Below, one piece after another: positions 2,426-45,584 of a DNA stretch of 64,000 nucleotides. The position numbers and the translations under genes were made by a program. Under the pieces are notes generated by a model. It worked only from the letters and a program-made list of their open reading frames with translations, was not told where the DNA came from and did not search any database. This stretch comes from Meyerozyma guilliermondii (Eukaryota): NCBI GenBank assembly GCA_051546255.1, contig CP128815.1, positions 1,674,001-1,738,000 on the forward strand, in the 5' to 3' direction. Position 1 is the first letter of the stretch; each line of letters starts with the position of its first letter.

Positions 2426-2686
2426 GATTTCTGAGTGAGCTTTCGGGTTTGGGAACTATAAGGTGCAAGCAACATAAAAAAGAGCTCACAAAAGACCGAT
2501 ACTCACCTACTATCAAATCTTTAAATGAACACTTCCAATTGAACCAAGAACTACTTCCCTTCATTTTCTCGTTATCCTCTTATTGCCGCACAAGCGTACG
2601 GCATAGATAAGACTGGTGTCTGGATGTCGCAAACCACACCGTCGCGCCACACAACTACTCCTATCCTTTTCAACTATTCAATTGTC

Positions 2687-5092
2687 ATGGAAAAACAATA
2701 TTCTGAACCCTATGTGGTCCAGAGACCCAGGAAGAAGTTGTGGGCTCATGCCGTAGGAGCCGGATGCTTGTTGATGATGTATTTTTATGGAAACTGGTCT
2801 TTTGATTATTTCAACTTTGGACTCACGACTGCAAATGATTCTTTTGATTACAAAAGAACATTTTTGAATGCGTTGACCACCAATCTCGCAGGCAATTGGT
2901 CAGAGAAATACACGTCGGAGCCTCATTTGGCCGGAACCAACTATGGATTTGTTGATTGGACCAAGGATAAATTTGAAGAATATGGACTCAAAGCCACAGT
3001 GGACACCTACGATATTTACGTCAGTTACCCTCACGAGCACTCATTGAAGCTTTTGAGAGCTAAGGATGACAAATTGTTGTACGAAGCTCCATTAAAGGAA
3101 GACGAAATCAAAAAGGACAAGACTTCTGTGGGCGGTAAGGATGCTGGAGTTGTCCCCACATTTTTGGGTTATGCTGCCAACGGCAATGTCACTGCTGAGT
3201 ACGTTTACGTAAACTACGGAACCAAGCAAGATTTTGAAACTTTGGAGAAATTGGGTGTTAGCGTCGCTGGTAAAATTGCCGTTGCTAGATATGGCTCGAT
3301 TTTCCGTGGACTCAAGGTCAAGTTTGCTCAGGATGCTGGTGCTGTAGGAGTGTTGTTATACACCGATCCAGGAGATGATGCTGGAATCACTCCTGCAAAC
3401 GGTTACAAGCAATATCCAGAGGGCCCTGCTAGGCATGAGAGTTCGGTTCAACGTGGAAGTGTCCAGTTTTTAGGTGCCCCAGGTGCCACTCCAGGTGACC
3501 CTACCACTCCAGGATATGCTTCAGTACCTGGAGCTGAACGTAAAGACCCCCACAACTCTATTGGCAAGATTCCAGTTCTTCCCATTTCTTACCGTGAAGT
3601 TACTCCAATTTTGAAGCTGTTGAACGGCCACGGGGAAAAGGCTCCTAAGGAGTGGAAGGGAGAACTTGAGGGATTCGACTACTACACTGGTCCAAACAAG
3701 AATGTAACCTTGAACTTGTACAATGATCAAGTTTTCAAGGTGCAACCTTTGCACAATGTGTACGGAGAAATCGAAGGAGAGAAAAAAGACGAGGTAATTA
3801 TTATTGGTAACCACCGTGATGCCTGGATTAAGGGCGGAGCAGGAGATCCTAACTCTGGTAGTGCCGTTCTTATTGAACTTGCCAGAGCTTTTGGTCAATT
3901 GAAGGCTGCTGGATTCAAGTTCAAGCGTACGATTGTGTTGCAAAGTTACGATGGAGAGGAATACGGACTTCTTGGCTCTACCGAGTATGGAGAGAACTAC
4001 GCCCACGATTTGACACGTAAGGTGGTCTCTTACATCAACTTGGATTCTGCTGTGACGGGCAAGAATTTGCACTTGGGAGCCTCGCCTGTTCTCAATCAGG
4101 TATTACGTAGTGTTGCAAAGGAACTTGATTACCCTGAAAAGAAGGTTGGCTCATTATACGACCACTTTGTCGATGTTAGTGGAGACAAGATCCACACTCT
4201 TGGTTCAGGATCTGACTACACTGTATTCTTGGAGCACCTTGGAATCCCATCTGTTGACTTGGGATTCGGCGCTGGCAAGGGAGACGCGGTGTACCAGTAT
4301 CACTCGAACTACGATTCTTACTACTGGATGACACACTTTGGTGATCCTGGATTCGTGTACCACAACTTGGCTGCGAAGTACGTGGGATTGTTGGCTTTGC
4401 AATTGTCCGAACATGAAATTATTGATTTCGGAACCAATGATTATGCCAACGCTTTAGTTGACTATTTCAGTGTCACTGAGAAATTGATTCCAAAGAAATG
4501 GTTGAAGGAAGAAGTTTCAAAGGGTGAAGGGTGGAATGAGTTTTTGCGGTGGGACATGGCTGACCTTGGTGCCAGCAAGGAACTTGCCACTGCTTACTCG
4601 CCACGAAACCTTTATCCATTCCCCGAATTATTTGGAGCAAAGCAATGTAAGCACAACAGACTCCATCAAATGATTGACTTGGCTCACCACAAGGAATTGA
4701 AATTGGAAGACATCGTCAAGCTTACCAAGACTGATCTCGAGAGATTGCAGAATGCAACCCAAATTCTCGATTCCGAAAGTCATGAAATCCAAGTCAAATT
4801 CGACAATCGTGATGCACTCAATTTCTGGCAACGGATCAAGCTTCATTTCCAGATCAAGCATCACAATGCGTTGTTGCAATACTTCGAAAGAAACTTCTTA
4901 CACCACAAGGGGTTACACGAGAGGTCGTGGTTTAAGCATATTGTATTTGCTAGTGGACGTTACACTGGGTATGCGGGTCAAGATTTGCCGGGATTACGTG
5001 AAGCACTTGAAGACGAGGACTTTGACCGTTTTGTACACTGGTTAGGAATCTTTTCCAAGGCACTCAGAAGAGTGTCTGCACACGTAGGTTGA
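2687..5092 (+). CDS. VPS70: M28-family glutamate carboxypeptidase / transferrin-receptor-like type II membrane protein (Vps70-like)
   Basis: N-terminal TM, PA domain (YVNYG, ARYG..FRG.KV), GNHRDAW, DPNSGSA, DGEEYGLLGS, SGSDY, YHSNYD, TfR-dimerisation tail; start 2687 preferred over upstream ATG 2624. Confidence 0.82.
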   Translation: MEKQYSEPYVVQRPRKKLWAHAVGAGCLLMMYFYGNWSFDYFNFGLTTANDSFDYKRTFLNALTTNLAGNWSEKYTSEPHLAGTNYGFVDWTKDKFEEYGLKATVDTYDIYVSYPHEHSLKLLRAKDDKLLYEAPLKEDEIKKDKTSVGGKDAGVVPTFLGYAANGNVTAEYVYVNYGTKQDFETLEKLGVSVAGKIAVARYGSIFRGLKVKFAQDAGAVGVLLYTDPGDDAGITPANGYKQYPEGPARHESSVQRGSVQFLGAPGATPGDPTTPGYASVPGAERKDPHNSIGKIPVLPISYREVTPILKLLNGHGEKAPKEWKGELEGFDYYTGPNKNVTLNLYNDQVFKVQPLHNVYGEIEGEKKDEVIIIGNHRDAWIKGGAGDPNSGSAVLIELARAFGQLKAAGFKFKRTIVLQSYDGEEYGLLGSTEYGENYAHDLTRKVVSYINLDSAVTGKNLHLGASPVLNQVLRSVAKELDYPEKKVGSLYDHFVDVSGDKIHTLGSGSDYTVFLEHLGIPSVDLGFGAGKGDAVYQYHSNYDSYYWMTHFGDPGFVYHNLAAKYVGLLALQLSEHEIIDFGTNDYANALVDYFSVTEKLIPKKWLKEEVSKGEGWNEFLRWDMADLGASKELATAYSPRNLYPFPELFGAKQCKHNRLHQMIDLAHHKELKLEDIVKLTKTDLERLQNATQILDSESHEIQVKFDNRDALNFWQRIKLHFQIKHHNALLQYFERNFLHHKGLHERSWFKHIVFASGRYTGYAGQDLPGLREALEDEDFDRFVHWLGIFSKALRRVSAHVG

Positions 5093-5525
5093 TGGAAGGA
5101 ATATATGCTGATTGATTTTGAAGATGGTAGGTCAAGTAGAATCGCTTATATGGATCGCTAAAACGTTTGCTCGGACGTGCATCGTACCGCTCAACGTCGC
5201 AGAGTATGCACGTTGGGATGCGGCTCATGCAAGATATTAGCCCAATTTGGCAAAGTAATTGAACAATTAAAAAGGACAATGGAAACAATGATTTCGGTAT
5301 ACAATCGCAGGCCACCCCGGTTTGGAAGCCGTTGGGGCATGTGGCACTGTGGCGAACCATCCAAAGTTTAGCAAAGTCACTTCAAGACCAAAGAAAAAAC
5401 TCCGGTCTTCGAAACAGTGCGGCGCGAGCGGCTGTGAAAATGTGGTAGTTTTGGTGCTTCACATCTATAAAAACCATCCCTAAGCCAACACACTCGGCGA
5501 TTAAAAGTATCAACTGCATGCGTGG

Positions 5526-5703
5526 GTATGTACTATGGTTGGCGAAAGCTGGCTAAACCAAAAGGGTAAAAACTCCTATAGAACAATGCAGGGTCAACAA
5601 GTGCGAAAATAATTAGCAGCGGCTCCCAACCGGTGCATAATGGAAACTATTGATCGATGGCGGTGTCTGGAGAATGCATATCATGTAAACGTACTAACAA
5701 TAG
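5526..5703 (+). other. Putative spliceosomal intron outside any long ORF (5'UTR intron or ncRNA host)
   Basis: GTATGT 5526, TACTAAC 5692-5698, TAG 5701-5703; TATAAAA at 5466. Confidence 0.7.
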
Positions 5704-5833
5704 CGACCGACGCTCGTGATAAGAAAACCAGGGTGAACATTTTCCTAATTTTATTGACTTCGGGATCATAAGGCGATTATTTTTTAACGATTAAACTACT
5801 ACAAAAACTTCGAGTATCCAAATTCCAACTACT

Positions 5834-8359
5834 ATGTATACTCCTGAACCGGCGCGTCTGCGGTCGTCGCTTCTTCGTCGTTTGAGTAGCTCAGTTTCCG
5901 GCTTGACCAAAAAACACCAAACGATAAAACCTGGTACTTCCTCAGGAAAACTGCCCATGTTCATCACGGCGATTTCTCCCGCTAATCTGAACGGGAGCCA
6001 GACGGAAAAGGAAGAGATCAAAGATTCGACGACTCCTAGATTCACGGGACATCTTCGTACTCCTCCATCTTCTGTGAAGAAAAGAGACTCGAGATCTCCA
6101 ACCCAGTTGAAGTCTTATAGTCAAGACCAAATTTGTGCAATTTGTGAAGAGCCATTGGCATCGAGTTTGCGAGGTGAAAAGGAAATCTTGCTTGCGTGCA
6201 ACCATCCTTGCCATAAAATATGTATGCTGGTGATATTATCTCTGGGAAATCGACTTTCCAGTAGTCTTCCTGATTTTTTGGATCCTTCGGTCGCATGTTG
6301 CAAAGAGTGTGGAGCACCTGCTCGTTGTGCTGATGCCAATGAAACGTCGCAGATGCTCGAGGAGATTGCTGTGAAGGGTATGATGTCGCCAGTGGAAGGA
6401 AAAATCCCATTTACCCCAGATGGTCAGATGATACCTGATCCAGTGGTTCATCCACCGGTTTCTGTCAGACCCACCTCTGAAATTCACATGAAAAAGTCCA
6501 GTGCGGTTTCGCCAGTAGTGGACTTTGAAGATGTCACTACACCGCAAATAACAAGTTTCGCCGACACAGATACGGTTGTTTTAGGTGAAATTCACAAAAA
6601 GGACATCGAGATCAATTTTAAGATAAAAGCTCCCAAAACCCACTCGGTTGCAAATGTTGCACAGGACCACCTACAAAAGAAGGAAGTGATGGCAGAAATC
6701 ATTTCCAAGTTGACAAACTTGAAAAACTTTGACCAGGTTGCTACAAACTTGAGCACACTTATTTTGTTTGATTTTTTGAACATTAGTGTCACCGGTAGCG
6801 AGTGGGACACTCTTTGTTGCTTTCTCTTTGACGATCGGTTATTACTTGTGGATTTCTCCAAAAACGAAATAGTGGGCCAACTACTGATCCACGATGATGT
6901 GGCTAGCATTAACAAGCGTGAAAATGGTATTACTCTCAATCTCACCCAGCAAGGGTTCCCCGAGTTGCAAATGTGCCATTCGCACCCATTGATATGCTTA
7001 AAGTGGTACACTTATTTTTGCCGGGTTCTTGCCCTGGTATCCACATCTATCGTTCCCAGCGTTCCCTTTAACCAGCTCACCACCAATGGCTGGTACGTCC
7101 TCGAAGACTCGTTTTCTTTGATTCCTGAAAATGCCATTAAAGTTAGAACCGCTACCGAGCATGATTGCCAATTGACAGAGAATTTGCTTTTGGAAGCGCT
7201 TCCTCGGCCAGAAAACTTGCCCATAAACCTCGTATTGACGATTCCTTTGGTCAACACCTCAGCCATGGATAACCAAACCTATAGAACAACCCTCATGAAA
7301 CTTGTGTTCAATGTCAAATCTCGTCTTCGTGCTTTTGACAAATTGGCACTCATTTTCATCGGCATCGATGCCAGCGGCCGGGCTTGTCGTAAGGGATCTT
7401 TTATAGGCTGTGCCGAGCCAAAGTGGGACGGCTGGAATGCGGTGATTGAAGGCATTGAAGTCAGCAATAATGAGGATATCAATGGTGCTGCTGTTTTTGA
7501 CAATGAGTTCCAGGAACTTCAAATTGCATTTGAAAAGTGCCGTGATTTGTTCCCATTCATTCCTAGTTCTCCTTCCAATATTAATCGTCTTTTGGTTATT
7601 CATACCAATCGCTATGGTCATATTGGCTGTGATGATGATTGCCTTGAAAGTCTTTCAAGATCTTTGGCTTCAATTCTTGATTCCTCCACACTCTCCATAG
7701 ATTTTGTTAGTGTGGGTGATACCATTAGCCCAGACTTGCAAATGGTGCATGATCTAGTAAGGTCTCCATTCCAAGGACATATGCTTGATTCCGTGCAGCT
7801 TCGGTCGGGTTCAGTTCTTCAACATTATTCTACATTTGAAAATTTGGTCACTGAGTTACCACACTTTGCTCAACAGCGTTATCTGTCGGTTTGCATTCCT
7901 ACACTCACACTTGAGTTTCAAAAAATTTTCGCAACCAATAAGCTGGTTAGTTTTAAAAGTATCGACATCAATGGTACAAAATGCGACATTCACGATGGAA
8001 TTGCCCATATGAATATCATGCTAGATAACCTCTCCAGCGATTTCGACTATTCAATTTCACTTCATGTGGAACTTGATTTGCATACTTTAGATCCCAATGT
8101 GTGTGAGAGCATTACCGATAACCTGAAATTGGCCGGCTTATTCACCTATAAATCGACCTGGAGAGGTGAGAGAAGCAAGACTACAAACTACGAAATGAAA
8201 ATTGTTCTGCTGAATGAGTTTTCGTTCTTTGAAGATGCAAAATCCATGTTCTCAGAAAACAGCCTTGAGATGCTAGCAGAAACTAAAAACCCATACTATT
8301 TCGATGGTCCATTGCTTTCGGCCGTGCCTCTCACTCTGGATCTTGGGTTTTTCAAATAG
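5834..8359 (+). CDS. FAR1: RING + PH-like + vWA-like protein of the Far1/Ste5 family, most likely Far1
   Basis: CAIC...C.H.CH..C...C..C RING; FLFDDRLLLVD PH-like segment; NLVLTIP...DKLALIF vWA-like segment; S/TP sites; 841 aa. Confidence 0.6.
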   Translation: MYTPEPARLRSSLLRRLSSSVSGLTKKHQTIKPGTSSGKLPMFITAISPANLNGSQTEKEEIKDSTTPRFTGHLRTPPSSVKKRDSRSPTQLKSYSQDQICAICEEPLASSLRGEKEILLACNHPCHKICMLVILSLGNRLSSSLPDFLDPSVACCKECGAPARCADANETSQMLEEIAVKGMMSPVEGKIPFTPDGQMIPDPVVHPPVSVRPTSEIHMKKSSAVSPVVDFEDVTTPQITSFADTDTVVLGEIHKKDIEINFKIKAPKTHSVANVAQDHLQKKEVMAEIISKLTNLKNFDQVATNLSTLILFDFLNISVTGSEWDTLCCFLFDDRLLLVDFSKNEIVGQLLIHDDVASINKRENGITLNLTQQGFPELQMCHSHPLICLKWYTYFCRVLALVSTSIVPSVPFNQLTTNGWYVLEDSFSLIPENAIKVRTATEHDCQLTENLLLEALPRPENLPINLVLTIPLVNTSAMDNQTYRTTLMKLVFNVKSRLRAFDKLALIFIGIDASGRACRKGSFIGCAEPKWDGWNAVIEGIEVSNNEDINGAAVFDNEFQELQIAFEKCRDLFPFIPSSPSNINRLLVIHTNRYGHIGCDDDCLESLSRSLASILDSSTLSIDFVSVGDTISPDLQMVHDLVRSPFQGHMLDSVQLRSGSVLQHYSTFENLVTELPHFAQQRYLSVCIPTLTLEFQKIFATNKLVSFKSIDINGTKCDIHDGIAHMNIMLDNLSSDFDYSISLHVELDLHTLDPNVCESITDNLKLAGLFTYKSTWRGERSKTTNYEMKIVLLNEFSFFEDAKSMFSENSLEMLAETKNPYYFDGPLLSAVPLTLDLGFFK

Positions 8360-45501: not shown

Positions 45502-45584
45502 TGACTCCGACGCGATTCGAACGCGTGCATCTTTACGATAACAGAACTTGAGTCTGCCGCCTTAAACCACTCGGCCACAGAGCC
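45502..45584 (-). tRNA. tRNA-Leu(CAA), intronless
   Basis: Reverse complement GGCTCTGTGGCCGAGTGGTTTAAGGCGGCAGACTCAAGTTCTGTTATCGTAAAGATGCACGCGTTCGAATCGCGTCGGAGTCA; long variable arm; downstream T-run. Confidence 0.96.

Follow-up and report, generated by a model that had tools for sequence, protein, structure and literature searches.

Efficiently spliced, lineage-restricted introns that remove upstream open reading frames (uORFs) from 5′UTRs are described for Saccharomyces USV1 and MCR1 and for S. bayanus YTA12 in the available text of Talkish et al. 2019 (PMC6726248). In C. parapsilosis, 34 of 422 introns lie within 5′UTRs, and the conserved CTG-clade examples named in the available text of PMC3287387 are the orthologs of orf19.2929, orf19.7025, orf19.6415.1 and orf19.2310.1, together with C. 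albicans ACC1. Non-genic intronic snoRNAs of Candida are hosts of C/D RNAs according to the available text of Donovan et al. 2016 (PMC5033589); in the S1 Table of that paper none of the 21 H/ACA families is assigned to a non-genic intron, and the only intronic H/ACA RNAs of the Candida catalogue, snR44 and snR191, reside in coding genes. Long undecoded transcript isoforms (LUTIs), described in the available text of PMC8153250, provide a further known system for comparison.

Here we analyze a predicted intron located between VPS70 and FAR1 in a 64,000-nt stretch of DNA, hereafter referred to as the window, of a CTG-clade yeast (genome searched, 10.66 Mb in 8 contigs). The gene order in the window is RPE1, ALB1, VPS70, a 741-nt interval, FAR1, a Ser/Thr-rich ORF and TEL2. 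The upstream gene (2624–5092, plus strand) codes for a VPS70-like M28 peptidase with PA, M28 and TFR-dimer domains. The first-pass annotation of the window placed the intron upstream of a Far1-like gene, and the next gene in the 3′ direction (5834–8359, plus strand, 841 aa) is indeed identified as the FAR1 ortholog by the source labels of near-identical proteins and by synteny with C. albicans-like loci; a Pfam search of its product revealed no family at E 0.001. Named members of both the Far1 and the Vps70 protein clusters are labelled Meyerozyma sp. The FAR1 start codon at 5834, common to Meyerozyma homologs, has a strong context with A at −3, and the start Met is shared by 14 of the 16 printed homologs, the remaining two being N-terminally shorter. 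The C. albicans Far1 ortholog is Orf19.7105 (available text of PMC3023161); its gene adjoins VPS70 (orf19.7106) with a gap of only ~165 nt, in which the intron has no counterpart. Paralogs of the VPS70-FAR1 interval were sought across the yeast's own genome, and none was found. As a side observation, two proteins identical or near-identical to the Vps70 and Far1 of the window (P0004 and P0128) carry the label of a basidiomycete, Naganishia cerealis, which suggests that Meyerozyma sequence is present within that assembly.

The predicted spliceosomal intron is 178 nt long (5526–5703, plus strand). It consists of a GTATGT 5′ splice site (5526–5531), a TACTAAC branch site (5692–5698) and, 5 nt apart from the latter, a TAG 3′ splice site, AATAG ending at 5703. 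These positions, as well as that of an ATG at 5518 and of the sequence TATAAAAA at 5466, are all as they had been given in the first-pass annotation. Donor, branch site and YAG are at consensus and are spaced as is typical of this genome, as in U2-type introns of CTG yeasts. The tight branch-to-AG spacing had been likened to that of six other introns, which fits the results of a relaxed scan of the window: it revealed eight further intron-like signals, six of them with a near-consensus branch site and 4–5 nt to the AG.

To put these signals in perspective, the genome was searched for TACTAAC-N1-2-YAG, which yielded 198 matches versus 104 for a reversed control. A sample of 95 sites among the 100 matches listed (91 in 80 regions plus 4 in the window) was surveyed. 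A GTA(T/A)GT donor was present within 400 nt in 76 of the 95, compared to a background of 20%, and branch-to-AG spacing was 4–5 nt in every one of these 76 sites among the matches listed. Thus, most of the surveyed sites are genuine introns, for which close branch-to-AG spacing is the norm. By chance, the pattern of signals is rare in a window of this kind, with 3 occurrences in a total of 60 simulated windows. In simulated intergenic DNA there were 8 hits in 12 Mb, i.e., 0.67 per Mb per strand, with ~0.02 expected for the intergenic DNA of this window; at this rate, chance alone should produce about one hit in the intergenic portion of the ~4.3 Mb surveyed, which leaves some probability to chance. 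Among the matches listed, the studied intron is the only strict-consensus non-coding site without an assignable known conserved host.

A canonical TATA box (TATAAAAA, 5466–5473, plus strand), the candidate distal promoter, is located 60 nt before the donor. Chance would place such a box 40–120 nt before a donor, an 80-nt stretch, in ~2.4% of cases; it is present before 6 of the 76 surveyed introns among the matches listed. A short exon 1 (5512–5525, plus strand) is predicted from start-site-like motifs at 5512 and 5520, with a start-site motif and a scanning distance that we assume to apply here. A putative Mcm1-like site, CCCAATTTGG, matches at 5241–5250 (no strand assigned) what we take to be the Mcm1 motif. 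The pheromone response element TGAAACA has no perfect copy in 5093–5850. Between the TATA box and the predicted start there is a CCCTAA sequence (5478–5483), presumably a Tbf1 core. Upstream of snR49, found elsewhere in the genome, Reb1-like and PAC-like motifs and CATAAAA are present within 90 nt of the snoRNA; ahead of the studied intron neither Reb1 nor PAC motifs were detected. Right after the VPS70 stop, ~430 nt before the donor, there is a TATATG-type motif that we take to be a 3′-end motif.

No protein explains the splice signals, as the first-pass annotation had stated: starting from an ATG, no frame across the junction stays open beyond a few codons. MRGDRRS* is the reading when spliced and MRGYVLWLAKAG* that when unspliced. 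Both start at the exonic upstream AUG (5518–5520, plus strand), which is in a weak context (T at −3) and opens a uORF of 7 codons when spliced and 12 when unspliced. In its spliced form the uORF shares the frame of FAR1; an N-terminal extension of Far1 was rejected because three stops intervene and homologs begin at the same Met. The intron contains seven further AUGs (5528, 5535, 5586, 5640, 5657, 5674 and 5683), five of them with A at −3. Altogether there are eight AUGs in 5512–5833 and none in 5704–5833, so that intron removal would delete seven of the eight upstream AUGs. The predicted exon 2 leader (5704–5833, plus strand, 130 nt) is therefore free of AUGs. Among the 110-nt windows of the interval, that of exon 2 also has the least structure (z +2.6). 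The part of exon 2 at 5736–5790 is 42% T and the following part, 5791–5833, is 42% A; the latter contains three start-site-like motifs (5798–5803). Motifs TCTT, GTA(A/G) and TA(C/T)(A/G)TA serve in transcription termination and 3′-end formation; none of them was found in exon 2 before the FAR1 start. The flanks of the intron form no joined coding frame and the FAR1 start codon is unaffected, as in 5′UTR introns. An AUG-free stretch of 130 nt upstream of the start codon is also present in 14 of 51 genes (27%) and hence is weakly discriminating. The TATA box at 40–120 nt and the AUG-free exon 2 each raise the odds of a real intron about threefold. We consider it quite likely that the intron is really spliced.

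Other non-coding introns of this genome were read by eye; among the matches listed there are six leader introns and four C/D snoRNA hosts. The leader intron of ACC1 was assigned by Pfam, and from their translations we take the remaining genes to be RHO1, RPS29, RPL29, FKS1 and MCM1. Five of the six leader introns end 0–3 nt before the start codon, the exception being ACC1 with 187 nt. The studied intron fits the leader class apart from its 3′ splice site, which lies 130 nt, and not 0–3 nt, from the start codon, an atypical distance. Inspection showed five sites that the script had flagged as non-coding to be coding, and a few sites with non-consensus donors were left out of the classes. In the ACC1 case (L053, minus strand), after the 5′ intron comes an exon of 187 nt without AUG, which stays open in frame, is rich in Arg and Ser and may encode a mitochondrial extension with a non-AUG start. 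The C/D hosts have introns of 87–108 nt with box C 9–13 nt after the donor. Two non-genic introns, L083 (87 nt) and L088 (99 nt), contain boxes C and D in snoRNA-host geometry with no Rfam match at E 1; they probably host divergent or Candida-specific C/D snoRNAs. In C/D hosts L061, L080 and L088, the gap between the end of box D and the branch site is only a few bases, and just 1 nt in L080 and L088.

To assess conservation, a metagenome scan was performed, which produced 11 loci from 80 candidate stretches. Seven of them (L008–L014) are VPS70 orthologs of CTG yeasts and represent four lineages: L012–L014 are 99% identical to a C. albicans cluster, L009 is 99.6% identical to a Sungouiella intermedia cluster, and L008 and L010/L011 are further lineages. 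The other loci, L015–L018, are paralogs or belong to other organisms and were left out of the comparison. No donor-branch-AG set was found in the VPS70-side interval of any of the seven loci. The comparison of the syntenic region, proposed in the first-pass annotation, revealed that the splice signals are absent in four distant CTG lineages, all of them outside Meyerozyma. Downstream of VPS70 in L008 and L009 there is 1.5–1.8 kb of other sequence, with no FAR1 at the syntenic position and no FAR1 remnants in the intervals, the gene having been either lost or relocated. In the available part of the C. parapsilosis intron table (PMC3287387), neither orf19.7105 nor the VPS70 neighbours are listed.

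One stretch of the intron, 5566–5586 (21 nt, plus strand), matches the syntenic spot of L008 (L008:5802–5822) at 19 of 21 positions. A match of this level was reached by 0 of 300 intron shuffles and 3 of 300 interval shuffles, with four regions tested. The stretch and its L008 copy are at a similar distance behind VPS70, and the remaining interval does not align. A search of the genome revealed no further copy of the motif beyond the control level. Eight matches were found in viral contigs; the four inspected share the motif alone. The stretch may form a hairpin base together with an H box, represent a TATA-like element or be a chance match.

Of the alternatives that the first-pass annotation offered, the second, in which FAR1 is preceded by a uORF and an intron of the 5′UTR, fits best. 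We consider that an unannotated, lineage-restricted 5′-leader intron of FAR1 has somewhat better than an even chance of being the correct reading. RNA polymerase II would start ~45–55 nt after the TATA box, at 5512 or 5520. Removal of 5526–5703 would then yield a ~140-nt leader, in which no more than one AUG, weak and close to the cap, would remain. Ribosomes would skip this AUG or reinitiate, or else the AUG would be excluded by the choice of start site, and Far1 would be made from 5834. The unspliced RNA with its eight upstream AUGs would be poorly translated and, in line with established knowledge, probably subject to nonsense-mediated decay (NMD). If the leader reading is correct, splicing would therefore be needed for Far1 output from the distal promoter. 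This reading best fits the signals and their spacing, the distance to the TATA box, the AUG pattern, the unstructured and terminator-free exon 2, the shared FAR1 Met and the existing precedents. Against it are the atypical distance of 130 nt, the fact that AUG-free leaders are common, the possible proximal start, the absence from four CTG lineages and from the available part of the C. parapsilosis table, and the single strict pattern or so that chance should supply in the surveyed intergenic DNA.

The putative FAR1 intron resembles those of USV1, MCR1 and YTA12 in its leader position, in leaving the N-terminus unchanged, in removing uORFs and in being missing from distant relatives; the donor, GUAUGU, likewise contains an AUG. 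In contrast to these introns, established by RNA-seq and RT-PCR, splicing at FAR1 is predicted from sequence. In addition, the clade is different, the gene codes for a mating scaffold, and exon 1 may keep one upstream AUG. With CTG-clade 5′UTR introns the FAR1 intron shares signals, non-coding flanks and an AUG-rich interior, and if spliced, it belongs to this known class.

Among the other explanations, an unlikely one is that the intron is spliced in a minor distal transcript, either a long-leader isoform or a short non-coding RNA, which tunes or interferes in a LUTI-like manner, while most Far1 is made from a TATA-less start at ~5800. The switch from T-rich 5736–5790 to A-rich 5791–5833 and the start-site-like motifs at 5798–5803 suggest that a separate, proximal start and promoter may serve FAR1, and both the exonic upstream AUG at 5518 and the atypical 130-nt exon 2 agree with such an arrangement. 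As in LUTIs (PMC8153250, available text), a distal promoter and a leader laden with upstream AUGs would overlie a possible proximal start; however, splicing at FAR1 would remove most of these AUGs. A repressive long isoform has nothing to gain from such removal. Furthermore, there is no canonical TATA box after 5473 ahead of FAR1, and exon 2 is devoid of the termination motifs listed above.

We regard it as unlikely that the consensus signals arose by chance in promoter DNA that is untranscribed or rarely spliced (a protointron). About one strict pattern is expected in the surveyed span, the site is the sole one without a known host among the matches listed, and the signals are absent in L008–L014. 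Chance would, however, have to account at once for a TATA box at the right distance (2.4%), for the sense orientation and for the lack of AUGs in exon 2 (27%), and the signals are perfect, while those of protointrons are looser (PMC6726248, available text).

The headline of the first-pass annotation, a non-coding host of an H/ACA RNA, did not hold: the intron has no Rfam match, folding signal, complete guide pocket or upstream ACA box. In its broader form, in which a non-coding host intron or an independent gene gives rise to an orphan small RNA of the H/ACA or another structured type, this explanation appears very improbable. The H/ACA-like letters pointed out in that annotation are present; the structure is not supported, since the stem 5538/5593 has an ensemble pairing probability of 0.0000 (when forced with both boxes open, −32.6 versus −41.2 kcal/mol). 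The ANANNA motif occurs eight times in the intron, and no hairpin-hinge-hairpin-tail fold with a free H box was found. ACA is present only at 5583, at 5597 and inside the branch site; there is no ACA box after the second hairpin and before the branch site, just a variant ATA at 5678. The folding z of the intron is −1.08, a level that 31 of 200 shuffles reach, and changes to −0.46, −0.83 and −0.05 when bounds are slightly shifted, compared to −1.55 to −4.0 for five H/ACA controls.

At the gathering score, the sole Rfam match in the whole window is an intron-containing tRNA (45502–45584, minus strand); at weaker scores there were two C/D hits, both within neighbouring ORFs and attributed to chance. 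The Rfam scan of the intron region suggested at first pass returned nothing for 5500–5830 at E 10. Seven H/ACA models run on the genome identified five orthologs elsewhere (snR49, snR44, snR191, snR46 and snR42, E 1e-5 to 1e-17), and none matched the intron locus. The S. pombe snR3 model had one weak match elsewhere in the genome; the snR34 model had no match anywhere, which says nothing on the intron. Since Rfam found two of the four C/D hosts of this genome and missed the other two, a blank Rfam result is no proof.

Guide targets were sought at 46 S. cerevisiae pseudouridine positions (available text of PMC8307265) mapped to the yeast's own rRNA, all 46 on U. A scan of the upper stem only revealed 13 pairs around 18S U120, a match that 3 of 150 shuffles equalled; its pocket is joint top over all U and top among known sites. 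This match is the best evidence for the H/ACA idea, from a weak scan: 29 of 150 shuffles equalled the snR49 control. The U120 guide was rejected because the pocket has no lower stem, the box straddles the 3′ splice site, and snR49, which targets U120, lies elsewhere. When both stems were required, the known target was on top for all five genuine H/ACA RNAs of the genome (a tie for snR191). The best score of the intron in this guide-pocket scan, which the H/ACA proposal fails, was 8 versus 10–12.5 for the five controls; no complete pocket with upper and lower stem 13–16 nt from a box was found for the 46 known rRNA sites. Guides for 25S 2865, 2975 and 2880 were rejected as weak, snR46 and snR42 being located elsewhere. 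Single-sequence target predictions are considered unconvincing in the available text of Canzler et al. 2018 (PMC5824354).

In favor of a small RNA, the intron length is suitable, and the 19/21 match is to L008, which lacks FAR1 at that place. The snR44 (RPS22) and snR191 (NOG2) introns are of the same length class; unlike the studied intron, in this genome these RNAs have two hairpins, an ACA ~30–35 nt before the branch site, negative z and a target that can be recovered. The snoRNAs found in non-genic introns of Candida, reportedly a subject of Mitrovich et al. 2010, are similar in being carried by orphan, intergenic consensus introns with a very short first exon. However, in four Candida species no H/ACA RNA is located in a non-genic intron, and the C/D hosts of this genome (87–108 nt) differ from the studied intron, in which neither box C (RTGATGA, at most one mismatch) nor box D (CTGA) was found. 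Pairing of the donor with the pre-branch region, seen when the intron is folded alone, was rejected (probability ~0.01 once flanks are included), as was a long hairpin at 5573–5672 (z −0.66). Telomerase RNA was rejected as well: upstream of the donor there is no template that matches more than one telomere repeat, and the longest telomere-repeat match is 6 nt. As the defining features of H/ACA, C/D and telomerase RNA were tested and not found, we class the intron as none of these.

Hardly credible are a telomerase RNA 3′-end intron, with spliceosomal cleavage known in fungi (PMC4299874, available text) and the 6-nt match against it, a micro-protein gene, with small split genes having escaped the initial classifier and spliced frames giving only a few codons from an ATG, and a VPS70 3′UTR intron, of a kind that occurs in Candida (PMC3287387, available text) and at odds here with the TATATG-type motif right after the VPS70 stop.

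Returning to the leader intron of FAR1, no published description of it in Meyerozyma was found in the literature searched, which held few subscription papers. In C. albicans, FAR1 is repressed by a1-alpha2. Loss of MTL alpha2 is reported for the group of Meyerozyma in the available text of PMC3649674. We think it improbable that a leader intron gained in the Meyerozyma lineage gates Far1, retention keeping it off and splicing or a promoter switch turning it on in mating; were this true, the gating would act after transcription in place of the a1-alpha2 repression of FAR1. The locus adds no new snoRNA. If the intron is real, the FAR1 gene model in Meyerozyma would be corrected, and studies of intron gain would have a further case, in a mating regulator, of a leader intron that has perfect signals and is confined to one lineage; the finding would matter more if splicing proves pheromone- or cell-type-dependent.
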